The notes: a model not told the origin generated them from the sequence alone. Numbered from the stretch's first letter, positions 1,985 through 6,377 are shown. The stretch: DNA of 6,377 bases from Promethearchaeota archaeon (GCA_048939465.1 JBHLPL010000110.1:1-6377), one strand, 5' to 3'. Numbers and translations: made by a program.

Positions 1985-3016
1985 ATGAAGTTACAGAATA
2001 TCGAGACTGCCAAGATTGATCGAAATCCTCAAAATCCCCGTGGGATCAACGTCGTTGAAGAAGATGAAAAGCTGGGATTGCTAATGGATTCAATAGAACA
2101 GTTCGGAATATTGGTGCCATTGGTTGTTACGCCTGAAAACGGACGTTATATACTTGTTGATGGCGAACGAAGGTACGAGGCAGCAAGAAGTCTCGGTCTT
2201 GTAAAAGTACCTGCTTATGTTACGGAAAAAGGGCTCAGTGATAAGGATGTCCTATTACGAATGTTTCACATTCATCATAACCGTGAGCAGTGGGGGCCAA
2301 TACAAGAGTGCATGGCTTTGGAGGATACCTATGAGAAGATAAGGAAACGTCCAAAAATTAAGGGAATAACCGCTGAGGATGCAAAGATACAGGCGATTGC
2401 GGAAGAATTAAGTAAAACCGCAGGAATTGAGTTTCGGACGGCGCGAGACAGAGTACTTTTTTTGCGGTGGCCGGAGGACGTTAAAAACAACTTGTATAAG
2501 ATACCGTCTGGGGCACATCACTATATTGTGGAAATTGAAAACGGTATTATCTTGCCTGCCTTAAAAAACTATCCTGATTACTTTGAAAATGTTCCAGTTA
2601 ATGAAGTCAGACGTTTCCTTCTTGAGAAGATCAGTGTCAACGCCGTTGGGAGGGGGATAGAAGTGCGTGTAGCAACTCCGATAGTAAAGTTTCAAACACA
2701 CAAAACGAAGGAGAGGAAGAAGATTCTCAGAATTCTAGATGATTTAGTTAGAGACAAGAATATGACCTACCAAGATGCTCGCGAGGAATTTGACCGACAG
2801 TTTCCAGAAGCCGCTTCTACACCACCGCCATCACCTCGCAAATTGTTGTCAGCAATATGTAACTTGTGTGAGCAGATCGAAGTATTTGATCCCGAATCAT
2901 TTGAGAGAAGCATCAAAAGGGCTAAGGCAAGCAAGAAAGATGTTATGTCTGCAATGCAAAGACTGATAGACATGCTGAATGATTTACAGTCTCGAATCAA
3001 AATAAATCGCAGTTAA
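1985..3016 (+). CDS. ParB/Srx-family protein (ParB N-terminal nucleotide-binding domain, ParB-type HTH, helical C-terminus); not part of a parAB cassette
   Basis: NPQNPR (aa 14-19), LMDSIEQFGILVPLVV, the arginine patch LVDGERRYEAA (aa 57-67) and VPAYV are typical of the ParB N-terminal domain. IAEELSKTAGIEFRTARDRVLFLRWPEDVKNNL (aa 138-170) resembles the ParB HTH region (ELA..LGKSR..V.N.LRLL.LPEEVQ). A Pro-rich linker (aa 276-286) precedes an amphipathic helical tail. Confidence 0.9.
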   Translation: MKLQNIETAKIDRNPQNPRGINVVEEDEKLGLLMDSIEQFGILVPLVVTPENGRYILVDGERRYEAARSLGLVKVPAYVTEKGLSDKDVLLRMFHIHHNREQWGPIQECMALEDTYEKIRKRPKIKGITAEDAKIQAIAEELSKTAGIEFRTARDRVLFLRWPEDVKNNLYKIPSGAHHYIVEIENGIILPALKNYPDYFENVPVNEVRRFLLEKISVNAVGRGIEVRVATPIVKFQTHKTKERKKILRILDDLVRDKNMTYQDAREEFDRQFPEAASTPPPSPRKLLSAICNLCEQIEVFDPESFERSIKRAKASKKDVMSAMQRLIDMLNDLQSRIKINRS

Positions 3017-3032
3017 TGATCACAGGTCTCAT

Positions 3033-4517
3033 ATGAACGTTTTCAGCGAAGATTCAATCCTATTTGAGGCTATTGATGGCAAATGCCTCAAAAGAATGAG
3101 AGGTATTCCGCATGGCATACAACGCCCATGGAAAGAACTCGTTTCGAAAGGAACGCTCTGGGCAGTGTATCGGATTAGTGGAGAGCATTGGCCGAGATCC
3201 ACTGAGAAAGCAATTCTTAAGTTGAAAGAAAGCTCAGGAGTAAGCCCATGTGTACTCGTAGGAAAGAATGAAGACCTTGGCACTGTAGCAACAGCCTTCA
3301 GCAAGTTACAGGTTCCTGTTGTCACTGAGATAGGAGGACGAGGGAAACTGGTACGACCTAGAGCGGTAGAAAAACAGAAAAAAGTAGAAAAAGGATGGAC
3401 ATCGCGCGTATCACCTTATGTCTTGGAAGATTGTTCAAAATTGAATAACATTCATGCCGATTTGCGTACGCTTATCTGTGTATTGGTGAAGAAGTATGGA
3501 GATAAAAGAGAGTGGGATGACGAACACGAGCATAAGGCGCTCCAGACGTTTTTCTTAGACTTTGCTGGCCTTAATGGTTTAAGTGCTGACGCCTCACGGG
3601 CCCAAATCGTTTTGCGCCGCCTTGAACAAGCTGGGATGGCGGGCAGTCGAGACCATTATTTTCACTCCTTTCAAAACTTCTTCTTTGGCCTATGGGTTAT
3701 AGGAGAAGCGCGTGATTACTTTGAGAAGTGGCTAAAAGTATCCAAACTGTTCTGGAGTGTTTCACTTGAGTTTGTATGGTTTCTCGTTTGCATGTGGCAC
3801 GATGTTGGGTATGGGCTTCATTCGCGGAGAGCTATCGAAGAGAACGTTTTTGGAATCGAACTTGAAGAGTCCCCCACTGACCGATTGAGTACATATCTCA
3901 CAAGCCTACCCATTATGGAGGCCAAAAGAACAATTACTTCACTGATGGAGCACTTACTGGACACCAAACCTCAAACTGGATGGATGGAACCGCGACGAGA
4001 GTCCAAATATACTAATACTGAACAGAAACTTGAAAGAGCCATAGATGCTGATCTGAGAAGTGGACATGGGGCTGCGAGCGCGCTGCGGCTTTACACGGAC
4101 ATGATGAATTTTATCAATAAGTGCGCTGTCCAGGAAAAAAGAAATATCCTAATTCAATCTACTTTAATTGCTGCTGCTTCAATACCTTTCCACGACTGGC
4201 ATTTTAGGAGGTGTGTACGGAAAGAGTATGGTGTCTGCAAAATACCGGTTATAACAATGCCTTTTGCAGCACTTCTTGCGTATGTCGATAGCATACAGGA
4301 AGATAGAAGGAAGTTTGACAGTATCAGAAAAGAGAGGGCGTTCTTGCGGCACCTCACTATAGAAGAAGAAAGGATCATATCAGCAGAGGTTGATGGAGCT
4401 GCACTTGCGAATGGAGATGTTATTTGGAAAATTGTAGAAGCAACCGATGTTCTTTCTTTTTTGGAAAGAAGCACGGCTAGCTTCGAAGTCGAATACCCGA
4501 AATGGTTAGTAGCATGA
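3033..4517 (+). CDS. HD-superfamily metal-dependent phosphohydrolase with an unassigned ~110-aa N-terminal alpha/beta domain
   Basis: Ordered candidate metal ligands: RDHYFHS (H208/H211), MWHDVGY (H256-D257), GHGAASA (H345), IPFHD (H387), AYVDSIQE (D419). The ATG is 16 nt after the parB-like stop. Substrate is unknown. Confidence 0.8.
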   Translation: MNVFSEDSILFEAIDGKCLKRMRGIPHGIQRPWKELVSKGTLWAVYRISGEHWPRSTEKAILKLKESSGVSPCVLVGKNEDLGTVATAFSKLQVPVVTEIGGRGKLVRPRAVEKQKKVEKGWTSRVSPYVLEDCSKLNNIHADLRTLICVLVKKYGDKREWDDEHEHKALQTFFLDFAGLNGLSADASRAQIVLRRLEQAGMAGSRDHYFHSFQNFFFGLWVIGEARDYFEKWLKVSKLFWSVSLEFVWFLVCMWHDVGYGLHSRRAIEENVFGIELEESPTDRLSTYLTSLPIMEAKRTITSLMEHLLDTKPQTGWMEPRRESKYTNTEQKLERAIDADLRSGHGAASALRLYTDMMNFINKCAVQEKRNILIQSTLIAAASIPFHDWHFRRCVRKEYGVCKIPVITMPFAALLAYVDSIQEDRRKFDSIRKERAFLRHLTIEEERIISAEVDGAALANGDVIWKIVEATDVLSFLERSTASFEVEYPKWLVA

Positions 4518-5788
4518 ATGTTAACAGAGTAAATCTTTTCAAAGCTGTGCTGCGTCTACTGCAAAGTACGGATAAAATCTCGAGTCTTGACTTGCCGGGA
4601 AAGGATGGTTTGAGTGGAGGTGCCATCCCATGGCGACTGAACGGCCACACTTTTGTTCATCCATTGCATCGAATGGCGTCAAGAGTCGGAGGATTCCCTC
4701 CACAACTACCTCGATATTTTATTCAACGTTTTACCAAACGGGGAGATTTAATATGTGATCCGTTTTGTGGGAAAGGTACGACGTTACTTGAGGCAGTATC
4801 TTTGAGGCGAAAGGCTCTAGGTTGTGATATCGGGCCTGATGCCGTTATTATATCCCGCGCAAAAACGAATTGGCCTTCGTTAGAAGAGATTCTTCCATAC
4901 GTTGAACAATTACCGCGAGACGGGGTCAAACAAGAAGTACCTGTTGATGTGAAGCTATTCTTTCATCCCAAGACACTAGAGCAAATCCTAGCTGCCAGAG
5001 AAAGGATACTCACCGACAGGTTGATAGGACGTGGACGACGGCGCCAGCTAGCTGAATTTACGATGGGGGTGCTGCTTGGTTGCTTGCACGGTAGATCGCG
5101 ATGCTCTCTCTCTCTACCAAGTAACCATGCGTTTGCTATGTCTCCCAGATATGTGAGGAAGTATGCAAAGGAGCATAATCTTAAATGTCCAAAGCGCGAC
5201 GTCAGAGAATGCATTATAGAGCGCATACTGATGATGCTTCCAGGTCCAAGAGTCAAAGAGTCTGCCCATGTTTTTGAGGATGACGGAAAGAAAATAGGTT
5301 TTAACAAGAAAGGTCAGTGGTCTGGACGAGTCAACCTAATCATTACATCGCCTCCGTATCTAGCTAGACAAACCTACATTAAGGACTCTTGGCTTCGATT
5401 GTGGTTGCTCGGTCGGGATTCTAAAGCAATTAAGGTAAAGTCATTGGAAACAGGTAATATTGTTAGATTCACCGAAATGATGCAGAGCTGCCTCGGAGAA
5501 TTCTTGCGTTTGCTTAGACCGAATGGGCGGTGCTTATTGGTATGTGGTACATCACATTGTGATTTATTGGGTGAAAAAACCAAAGTTCGGATTGCAGGTT
5601 TAGTAATGTACGCTGCGATGAATGTTACACACGAAAAATACAAATGGCATATCGAAAATCTTATTGAAGATAAAATTGTTCTGAAAAGGGGTAGTTATTT
5701 CGCAGTAAGAAGTAATGGTGATATCGATGATACACGGAGGAGGATAAGCGAAGACGATATAGTGAGCTTGGTTAAGATCCACAAATGA
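4514..5788 (+). CDS. SAM-dependent amino-DNA methyltransferase, alpha-class motif order, SPPY motif (probably N4-cytosine; N6-adenine not excluded)
   Basis: Motif X/I region HPLH...FPPQL...FTKRGDLICDPFCGKGTT (DPFCGKG at nt 4757), then a ~190-aa putative target-recognition insert, then catalytic motif IV LIITSPPY (nt 5348..5359) and EFLRLLRPNGRCLLVCG. I prefer start 4514 over 4502 because it gives an ATGA overlap with the HD stop (TGA 4515..4517). Confidence 0.88.
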   Translation: MNVNRVNLFKAVLRLLQSTDKISSLDLPGKDGLSGGAIPWRLNGHTFVHPLHRMASRVGGFPPQLPRYFIQRFTKRGDLICDPFCGKGTTLLEAVSLRRKALGCDIGPDAVIISRAKTNWPSLEEILPYVEQLPRDGVKQEVPVDVKLFFHPKTLEQILAARERILTDRLIGRGRRRQLAEFTMGVLLGCLHGRSRCSLSLPSNHAFAMSPRYVRKYAKEHNLKCPKRDVRECIIERILMMLPGPRVKESAHVFEDDGKKIGFNKKGQWSGRVNLIITSPPYLARQTYIKDSWLRLWLLGRDSKAIKVKSLETGNIVRFTEMMQSCLGEFLRLLRPNGRCLLVCGTSHCDLLGEKTKVRIAGLVMYAAMNVTHEKYKWHIENLIEDKIVLKRGSYFAVRSNGDIDDTRRRISEDDIVSLVKIHK

Positions 5789-6050: not shown

Positions 6051-6350
6051 TCAAAATTCGGTTACATATCCTTGCAGACACACCCTTAGCAGCAGTACCC
6101 CCGGAAGCCCGGTCTGTCTCCGTCCATGATTGAGTCTACCAATGACGTTCTCATCCAGCGGCACTCGCACCAGTTTATCAGCCTCGATCTCACCCTTCAG
6201 ACCGAGCTTCCGGAGCGATTCCACCAGCGGTAGCAGTTCAGCGTCCAGGGCTTCGTCAACGACCCAGCGGAGGGCCTTCCCCTCTCTATCACCACGCTCT
6301 TTGACCTTGTCCCACAGGCCGTTCGGCAATTTCATAGTACGATAGAACAT
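6051..6350 (-). CDS. Tandem ribbon-helix-helix (RHH) DNA-binding protein; true start may lie outside the window
   Basis: Two RHH-like units: YRTMKLPNGLWDKVKERGDREGKALRWVVDEAL and LVRVPLDENVIGRLNHGRRQTGLPGVLLLRVCL. Each has an alternating hydrophobic strand, helix, G-turn and helix. The frame stays open from 6350 to the window end (EICEEDRLP-M). Confidence 0.65.
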   Translation of the reverse strand: MFYRTMKLPNGLWDKVKERGDREGKALRWVVDEALDAELLPLVESLRKLGLKGEIEADKLVRVPLDENVIGRLNHGRRQTGLPGVLLLRVCLQGYVTEF

Positions 6351-6377
6351 TGGTAGGCGATCTTCTTCACAAATTTC

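Follow-up and report, generated by a model that had tools for sequence, protein, structure and literature searches.

Restriction-modification (R-M) systems of Type III and Type I contain an amino-methyltransferase that is obligatorily linked to non-methylase partners, and a nucleoside triphosphate (NTP) switch gives them long-range communication along DNA. To our knowledge, neither a ParB-fold switch nor an HD enzyme forms the core of a modification-linked restriction system. ParB-fold proteins are instead met as cytidine triphosphate (CTP)-switch clamps, as in ParB/Spo0J, Noc and KorB, or in pairs where a ParB/Srx N-terminal domain is coupled to a post-replicative DNA modifier, namely the 5mYOX T-dioxygenases (PMC13229309), DpdB-DpdA, DndB and fusions of ParB with N6/N4-methyltransferases. 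Here we describe a three-gene cassette at positions 1985-5788 of a 6,377-bp stretch from a Promethearchaeota archaeon (GCA_048939465.1 JBHLPL010000110.1:1-6377), which is the whole of contig C50 in a genome bin of 152 contigs and 1.96 Mb and is referred to as the window. The cassette encodes a ParB-family protein, a two-domain protein carrying a putative HD phosphodiesterase domain, and a DNA amino-methyltransferase. Judged from gene neighbourhoods and pairwise identities, the three genes are one conserved, co-diverging and horizontally moving unit. We read it, with a probability of about 0.5, as a self-contained mobile module of the R-M kind, with ParB and the HD protein presumably directed against unmodified DNA.

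The cassette resembles Type III and Type I R-M in organization. Its amino-methyltransferase is likewise tied to non-methylase partners within a self-contained, mobile unit, its non-methylase gene breaks while the methylase persists, and its methyltransferase family is interchangeable. The two differ in composition. The cassette lacks a helicase or translocase motor, a canonical restriction endonuclease (REase) active site and a recognised specificity subunit, and the methylase is partnered by a predicted ParB-fold nucleotide switch and a predicted HD phosphodiesterase. The ParB-modifier pairs share with it the coupling of a ParB/Srx domain to a modifier, whereas in the cassette ParB is encoded on its own and retains a helix-turn-helix (HTH) of the ParB/Noc type, and its constant partner is the HD protein rather than the modifier; ParBs associated with 5mYOX have no obvious DNA-binding domain (PMC13229309). 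GmrSD, BrxU and SspE, which are ParB-like (DUF262) fusions with nucleases from Type IV restriction and PT-sensing defence, also combine an NTP-binding module of the ParB superfamily with a nuclease-type effector in a conflict context. In these systems, DGQHR/DUF262-type domains are fused to HNH or DUF1524 and attack modified DNA with no cognate methylase; the cassette has instead a ParB of GERR/HTH type, a separately encoded HD protein as the presumed effector and a linked methylase, and for these reasons is not GmrSD/SspE-like.

A search of PADLOC-DB v2, whose models cover DISARM, BREX, Dnd, Ssp, MADS and candidate systems, revealed no model that matches the HD protein, and the ParB protein (residues 1-82) matched nothing beyond the ParB portion of the MTase_II model PDLC03229, a ParB-methyltransferase fusion (E-value 1.9e-5). 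A literature search on ParB, HD, methylase and defence found no description of the trio. Both outcomes agree with the initial annotation of this DNA, in which no named system with these three genes was known. The cassette belongs to none of the named families compared, and we see a roughly even chance that it constitutes an R-M-like, modification-linked module for discriminating self from non-self. If functional, it would add a restriction-like system that pairs its methylase with a ParB-fold switch and an HD enzyme, and would give ParB proteins a role other than those in segregation, nucleoid occlusion and gene silencing.

Three open reading frames (ORFs) on the plus strand, 1985-3016, 3033-4517 and 4502-5788, fill the cassette. 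The ParB gene ends with a TAA stop at 3014-3016, and the middle gene, which encodes the HD protein, begins 16 nt further on with an ATG at 3033. Its TGA stop at 4515-4517 overlaps the ATG at 4514 of the methylase gene in an ATGA, and an in-frame upstream ATG at 4502 provides an alternative methylase start. These ORF, stop and start positions confirm the three co-oriented genes, the 16-nt gap and the ATGA overlap proposed earlier, for which coordinates, spacing and residue numbers (R62/R63, H256/D257 and SPPY) had all been given correctly. The domains assigned at that stage, a ParB N-terminal domain with HTH, an HD domain and an SPPY amino-methyltransferase, hold as well, as judged by Pfam scores, motifs and invariant ligands. 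ParA, which had been noted as absent, was found neither in the window nor in any related locus examined; as no parS was found either, a ParABS partition system was rejected.

To analyze the conservation of the cassette, we gathered another 32 loci, free of redundancy, from metagenomic assemblies and GTDB and clustered their ORFs, which gives 33 loci together with the window. Several of these loci, namely L020, L024, L026, L028, L029, L032, L034, L036 and L038, stem from nanopore metagenome-assembled genomes of the Microflora Danica (MFD) records. In 30 of the 33 loci the HD gene is directly preceded by a ParB gene of the same subfamily, with a gap below 100 nt in all but two. Of the three exceptions, L037 is a fragment at a contig end, L038 contains a gene of the ParB cluster on a contig that stops short of the HD gene, and L041 is the most remote variant. 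Pairwise identities of the three proteins co-diverge, with r = 0.96 for ParB versus HD (Mantel p 0.001) and r = 0.91 for methyltransferase versus HD. By these neighbourhoods and identities, ParB and the two-domain REase-like/HD protein are shown to be an obligate, co-diverging pair. The earlier proposal that the trio is a unit is therefore upheld, since a gene set of this type recurs in 32 other loci and co-diverges.

The modification gene is obligatory but exchanged: all 27 loci with an intact HD gene have an adjacent one, and its type varies. A permuted N6/N4 SPPY methyltransferase occurs in 18 of the 27, in the order ParB-HD-methyltransferase (the clade of the window) or methyltransferase-ParB-HD (a deep sister clade). 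The remaining loci have a beta-class N6/N4 methyltransferase (1/27, L039), a Dam-class methyltransferase (3/27; L003, L015 and L043) or a B12-binding radical S-adenosylmethionine (SAM) enzyme (5/27), the latter encoded at L006:11559-13022, L022:4528-5589, L023:8846-9901, L024:8879-9934 and L036:8804-9904, in addition to L041:2968-4635 in the remote variant. The L041 protein is most like BchE, HpnR and other cobalamin-dependent C-methyltransferases among NCBIfam models, all far below cut-off. In a maximum-likelihood tree of 28 HD proteins (L043 left out), the Dam-type loci fall at two well-supported positions apart from each other, those with the radical-SAM enzyme group in a single clade, and the beta-class locus L039 sits inside the methyltransferase-ParB-HD clade. 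Because of these placements, the modifier type is, on the tree, replaced at least four times (Dam at least twice, radical SAM once and beta-class once) with ParB and HD retained. The interchangeable third gene is thus a natural experiment in which varied modifiers are set on one ParB-HD chassis, and the radical-SAM clade may hold a new, undescribed DNA modification, provided that the enzyme modifies DNA. Beside one Dam-type cassette (GCA_004196315.1), a small RelA/SpoT-type HD_4 gene follows at L043:11621-12178, a single occurrence.

Decay of the cassette follows a pattern of its own. The HD gene is broken in four loci. In the decaying L026 (1411-9002), a Mutator-family transposase interrupts the HD gene and a DDE (DUF772/DDE_Tnp_1) transposase separates methylase and ParB, and in L040 the HD gene is split; both loci retain the methylase. 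In L019 and L031 the HD gene is frameshifted, and these are the only loci without a modification gene. Though drawn from few and related loci, such a pattern would be predicted were the HD gene harmful in the absence of a modifier.

The methyltransferase of the window (4502-5788, plus strand) has 428 residues when started from the ATG at 4502 or 424 residues from that at 4514, and was assigned by Pfam, PADLOC and motifs. It matches N6_N4_Mtase (PF01555) with an E-value of 1.3e-16 and 61.7 bits against a cut-off of 26.7, in the motif I region only (profile positions 166-216). It also matches PADLOC Type II methyltransferase model PDLC03325 over its full length (1.3e-41); its PADLOC matches are to the generic MTase_II models and, weakly, to mad2 (2.1e-8, motif I region). 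Motif I, DPFCGKGT, occupies residues 86-93 and motif IV, TSPPY, residues 282-286. Among 21 orthologues, SPPY is invariant and motif I near-invariant. The motif order is permuted, with motif I ahead of motif IV by ~190 residues, unlike the beta-class order, in which IV precedes I. Its sequence matches in the PDB are N4-cytosine methyltransferases, through motif I alone. By motif conventions, the SPPY form suggests N4-methylcytosine (m4C) specificity.

The ParB protein (1985-3016, plus strand; 343 residues) was identified by Pfam ParB_N, TIGR00180 and an orthologue profile. It consists of an N-terminal ParB/Srx nucleotide-binding domain, a ParB/Noc-type HTH at residues ~140-180 and a C-terminal half (~180-343) peculiar to the family, in which a PPxPxKL stretch is conserved. 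The Pfam ParB_N (PF02195) match has an E-value of 6.2e-15 and 55.5 bits against a cut-off of 26.3, and the TIGR00180 match 6e-16 and 58.7 bits against 58.45; ParB_N is also matched by 26 of the 29 upstream neighbours of the HD gene in related loci. A profile of 29 orthologues matches Bacillus subtilis ParB (1e-19) and Noc (8e-19) through the HTH, the alignment with the Noc HTH region extending to profile position 178, and residues 8-165 of the window protein align to residues 28-188 of Spo0J. By these profile alignments, the protein is of the ParB/Noc type and not of the DUF262/DndB type.

Box II of the nucleotide pocket is present as GERR at residues 60-63, with a family consensus of DGERR and a near-invariant R63. 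In canonical ParB, E111 and N112 of the ENLQR box are required for CTP hydrolysis and for gate closure through N-gate engagement. In the profile alignment, I96 and H97 stand opposite this E-N pair of box III (B. subtilis numbering, PDB 6sdk), which is absent from the cassette protein; the following R-E is retained, and H97 is near-invariant across the family. Compared to the CTP-switch clamps, the cassette ParB thus shares the N-terminal domain, the GERR box and the HTH alignment, whereas it lacks ParA, a parS-like site and E111/N112, differs in its family-specific C-terminal half, and has an HD enzyme and a methylase as partners.

The middle protein of 494 residues was modelled with a 47-sequence alignment (predicted local distance difference test score, pLDDT, 91.7; predicted template-modelling score, pTM, 0.93), which revealed two domains. 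The larger C-terminal domain (residues ~128-494; 3414-4517, plus strand) was assigned an HD/PDEase fold by its invariant ligands and fold matches. Invariant in the alignment are H208, H211, H256-D257, H345, H387, D419 and D424, which correspond to the H..HD..H..H..D di-metal pattern; D388 follows the invariant H387, and R125, R206, R352, R392 and R426 are conserved arginines of the protein. Structure comparison by VIA-align against 48,161 PDB chains gave Z scores of 10.3-9.4 to class I phosphodiesterase (PDE) catalytic domains and the C-terminal domain of PPX/GppA, with an HD hydrolase in the range 10.3-8.2, followed by YhaM (8.2), PgpH (7.0) and SAMHD1 (6.7). Among helical domains a Z near 10 is no more than average, so the HD call leans in large part on the motif set. 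AlphaFold DB clusters named "HD domain-containing" match the domain as well, with E-values from 3e-19 to 1e-3.

The middle protein matches no Pfam family at E ≤ 0.1 and no curated HD model (PF01966 and relatives), and its sole family match, to TIGR03401 (HD, cyanamide hydratase family), has an E-value of 0.013 and 15 bits against a cut-off of 109.85. Its profile gave only noise against PDB sequences, as did a Foldseek search of the whole model against the PDB, where E1 enzymes dominated. Pfam HD-CE, to which a feature search pointed weakly (0.82, below the lead level of 0.9), was rejected after a Pfam scan gave no confirmation and no paper was found. Altogether, the fold and the motifs jointly indicate that the C-terminal domain is of the HD/PDEase fold, and it is predicted to be a di-metal phosphodiesterase or nuclease effector. 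It shares the fold and the H..HD..H..H..D set with Cas3 HD, Cas10 HD, SAMHD1/dGTPase, YhaM and class I PDEs, and differs from these HD effectors in its large size (~370 residues), the absence of a Pfam HD match and the fusion to a degenerate restriction fold.

This fused N-terminal domain (residues 1 to ~115; 3033-3377, plus strand) appears REase-like from the structure model and fold matches. Modelled alone, it reached a pLDDT of 87.9, and its top VIA-align list is almost entirely of REase fold: SdaI (Z 6.4), AF1548 (6.3), XisH (6.2), NucS (6.2) and BstEII (6.2), in addition to SfsA, PaqCI, VRR-NUC, LlaBIII, FAN1, Can2, Hjc, Vsr and MspJI. Although nearly all of the top 50 rows are of this fold, the Z scores are just 6.4-4.0, and Foldseek against the PDB gave E-values ≥ 0.05. 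The domain is probably a degenerate, non-catalytic restriction-type PD-(D/E)xK fold, and probably serves as a DNA-reading or docking module, not as a nuclease. The initial statement that the unit has no recognisable REase needs amending accordingly: residues 1-110 model as an REase-like fold, while the lack of conserved catalytic residues bears out the rest of it.

Relatives of the HD protein numbered ~100 in a word-indexed search and fell into 153, 450 and 1,271 clusters at 50% identity for E-values ≤ 1e-30, 1e-10 and 1e-3, respectively, all unnamed and of ~500 residues. No fused forms (866-2470 residues) were found, which is weak evidence, the 150 best representatives all being of ~500 residues or fragments. 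A complex prediction of ParB with the HD protein from their own alignments scored 0.11 against a mark of 0.32 and speaks neither for nor against a complex.

R-M-like logic is proposed because the modifier is obligatory yet interchangeable and the modifier-less loci have a broken HD gene. The alignments show the catalytic motifs, namely the presumed HD metal site and the methyltransferase motifs, to be intact, with GERR and HTH retained in ParB. In the mechanism we propose, the methyltransferase would mark the host's own DNA, probably with m4C in the cassette of the window. ParB would bind DNA by its HTH, use the GERR nucleotide pocket as a switch for loading, spreading or scanning, and position or license the HD protein, whose degenerate restriction-fold domain would read or dock on DNA. 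The di-metal HD site would be the effector, which we favour to cut unmodified DNA; less likely, it would hydrolyse nucleotides upon sensing such DNA. As an outcome, phages and plasmids would be kept out and/or the host would become addicted to the cassette. Precedents for a ParB-fold protein paired with a DNA-modifying enzyme are the ParB-dependent phage T-dioxygenase (PMC13229309), DpdB with DpdA (PMC12839542) and the ParB-methyltransferase fusions (PMC11529989; also PADLOC model PDLC03229). The initial annotation likewise had the methyltransferase mark self and ParB and HD act on unmarked DNA; this fits the obligation and exchange of the modifier as well as the decay, and the mechanism itself we infer. 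A bolder version appears rather doubtful: a new type of R-M immunity, in which the ParB-fold switch replaces the helicase motor for scanning of and communication along DNA, the first HD-type restriction nuclease is guided by a dead restriction fold, and a B12 radical SAM enzyme provides the self-mark in a sister clade.

Several observations weigh against an R-M-like module acting on unmodified DNA. The closest solved neighbours of the HD fold are cyclic-nucleotide PDEs and PPX/GppA, not known DNases, and we know of no HD domain established as a restriction-nuclease fold. In the N-terminal domain, the catalytic D...(D/E)xK is missing, as no acidic or lysine column is invariant or near-invariant over residues 1-124 of the 47 sequences, the best acidic column (position 51) being acidic in 28 of 47. 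Because E111/N112 are replaced by I96/H97, canonical CTP hydrolysis and gating by the cassette ParB seem doubtful, and the CTP-gated clamp referred to initially cannot be assumed once the E-N pair of box III is lost. No parS-like site was found among the repeats of the window or the palindromes of 31 upstream regions. A Pfam census of 102 flanking proteins, for which there was no matched control, found mostly housekeeping, heterogeneous genes and no defence-island signal, so the defence-island enrichment looked for on the initial suggestion did not appear. In addition, the locus counts rest on related, non-independent loci.

The most serious competitor, although unlikely, is a DNA-modification or epigenetic module without killing, in which ParB would load on or open the duplex and activate the methylase or radical SAM enzyme, and the HD protein would be an accessory, for example a regulator that hydrolyses a by-product or the nucleotide of ParB, or else an enzyme for repair or processing. 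Activation by a ParB fold is documented for phage T-dioxygenases (PMC13229309) and proposed for DpdB, ParB-methyltransferase fusions exist, the flanks of the cassette are mostly housekeeping, and the HD fold is nearest to nucleotide and polyphosphate phosphodiesterases. However, an accessory tied to one chemistry should not tolerate four unrelated modifier types, and the HD protein accompanies ParB more constantly than any other partner, exceeds both partners in size and contains a probable restriction-fold domain. The gene decay, moreover, resembles R-M decay, and patchy horizontal spread is more typical of selfish or defence modules. Abortive infection triggered by methylation sensing is distinctly improbable. 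ParB would then detect unmodified DNA, and the HD protein would deplete deoxynucleoside triphosphates, NTPs or CTP, or degrade RNA, to arrest growth. Nucleotide-depleting HD effectors (dGTPase, SAMHD1-like) are established in phage defence, the HD domain resembles enzymes of the PDE, PPX/GppA, YhaM and SAMHD1 types, and the conserved arginines around its site would suit nucleotide phosphates; the fusion of a probable restriction-fold, DNA-type domain to HD argues against this variant.

A role in the establishment, anti-restriction or maintenance of mobile elements has a slimmer chance still. A ParB-targeted methylase would pre-protect incoming DNA, and ParB with the HD protein would serve partition or entry, as might suit the one locus found in a conjugative element beside ArdA, SSB and TraC, though that locus only. 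Fusions of ParB with methyltransferases are characteristic of the leading regions of plasmids and of Asgard mobile genetic elements (PMC11529989), and the closest fold relatives of the cassette ParB are partition proteins. Yet most loci are chromosomal and lack integrase, relaxase or replication genes, no matches exist in 72,556 plasmids, 50,697 phages or IMG/VR, and neither ParA nor centromere-like repeats accompany the cassette. That the three genes adjoin by chance, or reflect a binning or annotation artefact, could be argued from the short 6.4-kb contig and the absence of a homologue of the HD or helicase gene in 60 Asgard relatives, and has a negligible probability: on genomic grounds, chance adjacency is ruled out, as the gene set recurs, translationally coupled and co-diverging, in 32 other loci.

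As for the ParB-HD-modifier cassette itself, its hosts belong to at least six bacterial phyla, including Acidobacteriota, Verrucomicrobiota, Planctomycetota, Zixibacteria, Bacteroidota, Aminicenantes and others, and the phyla are intermixed on the HD-protein tree. The HD family is restricted to uncultured soil, peat and sediment microbes in addition to one Asgard genome bin, and the cassette has never been met at the bench because it is confined to such microbes. The family has no matches in IMG/VR, PLSDB (72,556 plasmids) or INPHARED (50,697 phages), on which grounds a phage or plasmid origin was rejected. A search of 60 Asgard relatives found no full-length member, just three short, partial hits to the HD region, of which one falls in another part of the window's own bin. 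The closest cassette (L012, 62-68% identity) adjoins a protein that weakly matches region 4 of sigma-70. These two observations suggest that the Asgard copy was acquired across domains or else lies on a bacterial contig assigned to the wrong bin. The GC content of the contig is 43.8%, compared with 43.4%, and its tetranucleotide distance is mid-rank among like-sized contigs; its composition thus fits the bin, although at 6 kb this is a weak test. With its bacterial-looking nearest relatives, the cassette in this bin is a candidate for inter-domain transfer.

Most loci are chromosomal and lie amid housekeeping genes without integrase, relaxase or replication genes; one is in an integrative and conjugative element beside ArdA, SSB and TraC, and one adjoins a RES toxin gene. 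In a Bryobacterales metagenome-assembled genome (L002:8320-17687), the cassette, together with an opposite-strand orphan gene of 493 residues, lies between a UvrA_inter fragment of 175 residues and a UvrA-like gene of 838 residues, and looks as if it had been inserted into a uvrA paralogue. Two loci of a Thermoguttaceae lineage that are 94% identical (L017:15-17274 and L005:1311-21335) have the cassette nested in an operon like that of DISARM class 1, in the order SNF2-type helicase, Eco57I-type methylase, cassette, YhcG PDDEXK nuclease (L017) and DrmA-DrmB. DrmA-DrmB is a fused DEAD/Helicase_C/MZB protein in L017 and two separate genes in L005, which has a PLD gene in addition. This placement between SNF2/Eco57I-methylase and DrmA-DrmB/PLD genes is limited to the L005/L017 lineage; because all other loci, including the window, lack DISARM genes, the cassette is not a DISARM component.

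Upstream of the cassette, a divergent intergenic region (1478-1984) presumably holds the promoter or promoters. A sigma-70-like match at 1755-1783 agrees with the bacterial consensus at 10 of 12 positions, a consensus that does not apply to an archaeon, in which this contig is binned. Seven such matches were observed, compared with 9.2 +/- 3.4 in shuffled sequences, which is chance level. The "one good promoter" initially assigned is thus present as a sigma-70-like match, although shuffled sequences contain such matches at least as often and sigma-70 is inapplicable to an archaeon. No operator or parS-like palindrome is common to the 300 nt upstream of 31 cassettes (the window and 30 related loci), and a repeat search of the window revealed no notable and no centromere-like repeats.

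Two further frames on the minus strand flank the cassette in the window. The divergent gene at 2-1477 encodes a WYL-domain protein with an HTH-like stretch and a weak match to the ZorC "EH signature". It leaves the contig just short of a Walker-A-like ITGP, and its continuation looks like a P-loop helicase. No relative of this WYL-helicase was found in 60 Asgard genomes, and none of the other cassette loci examined contains it; although the initial annotation had proposed to include it, it was rejected as a fourth component, not being conserved with the cassette. On the other side, an open frame of 108 residues without a family match (6051-6377) leaves the contig end, and a 16-nt inverted repeat (6101-6116 and 6198-6213, 94% complementary) lies within it.

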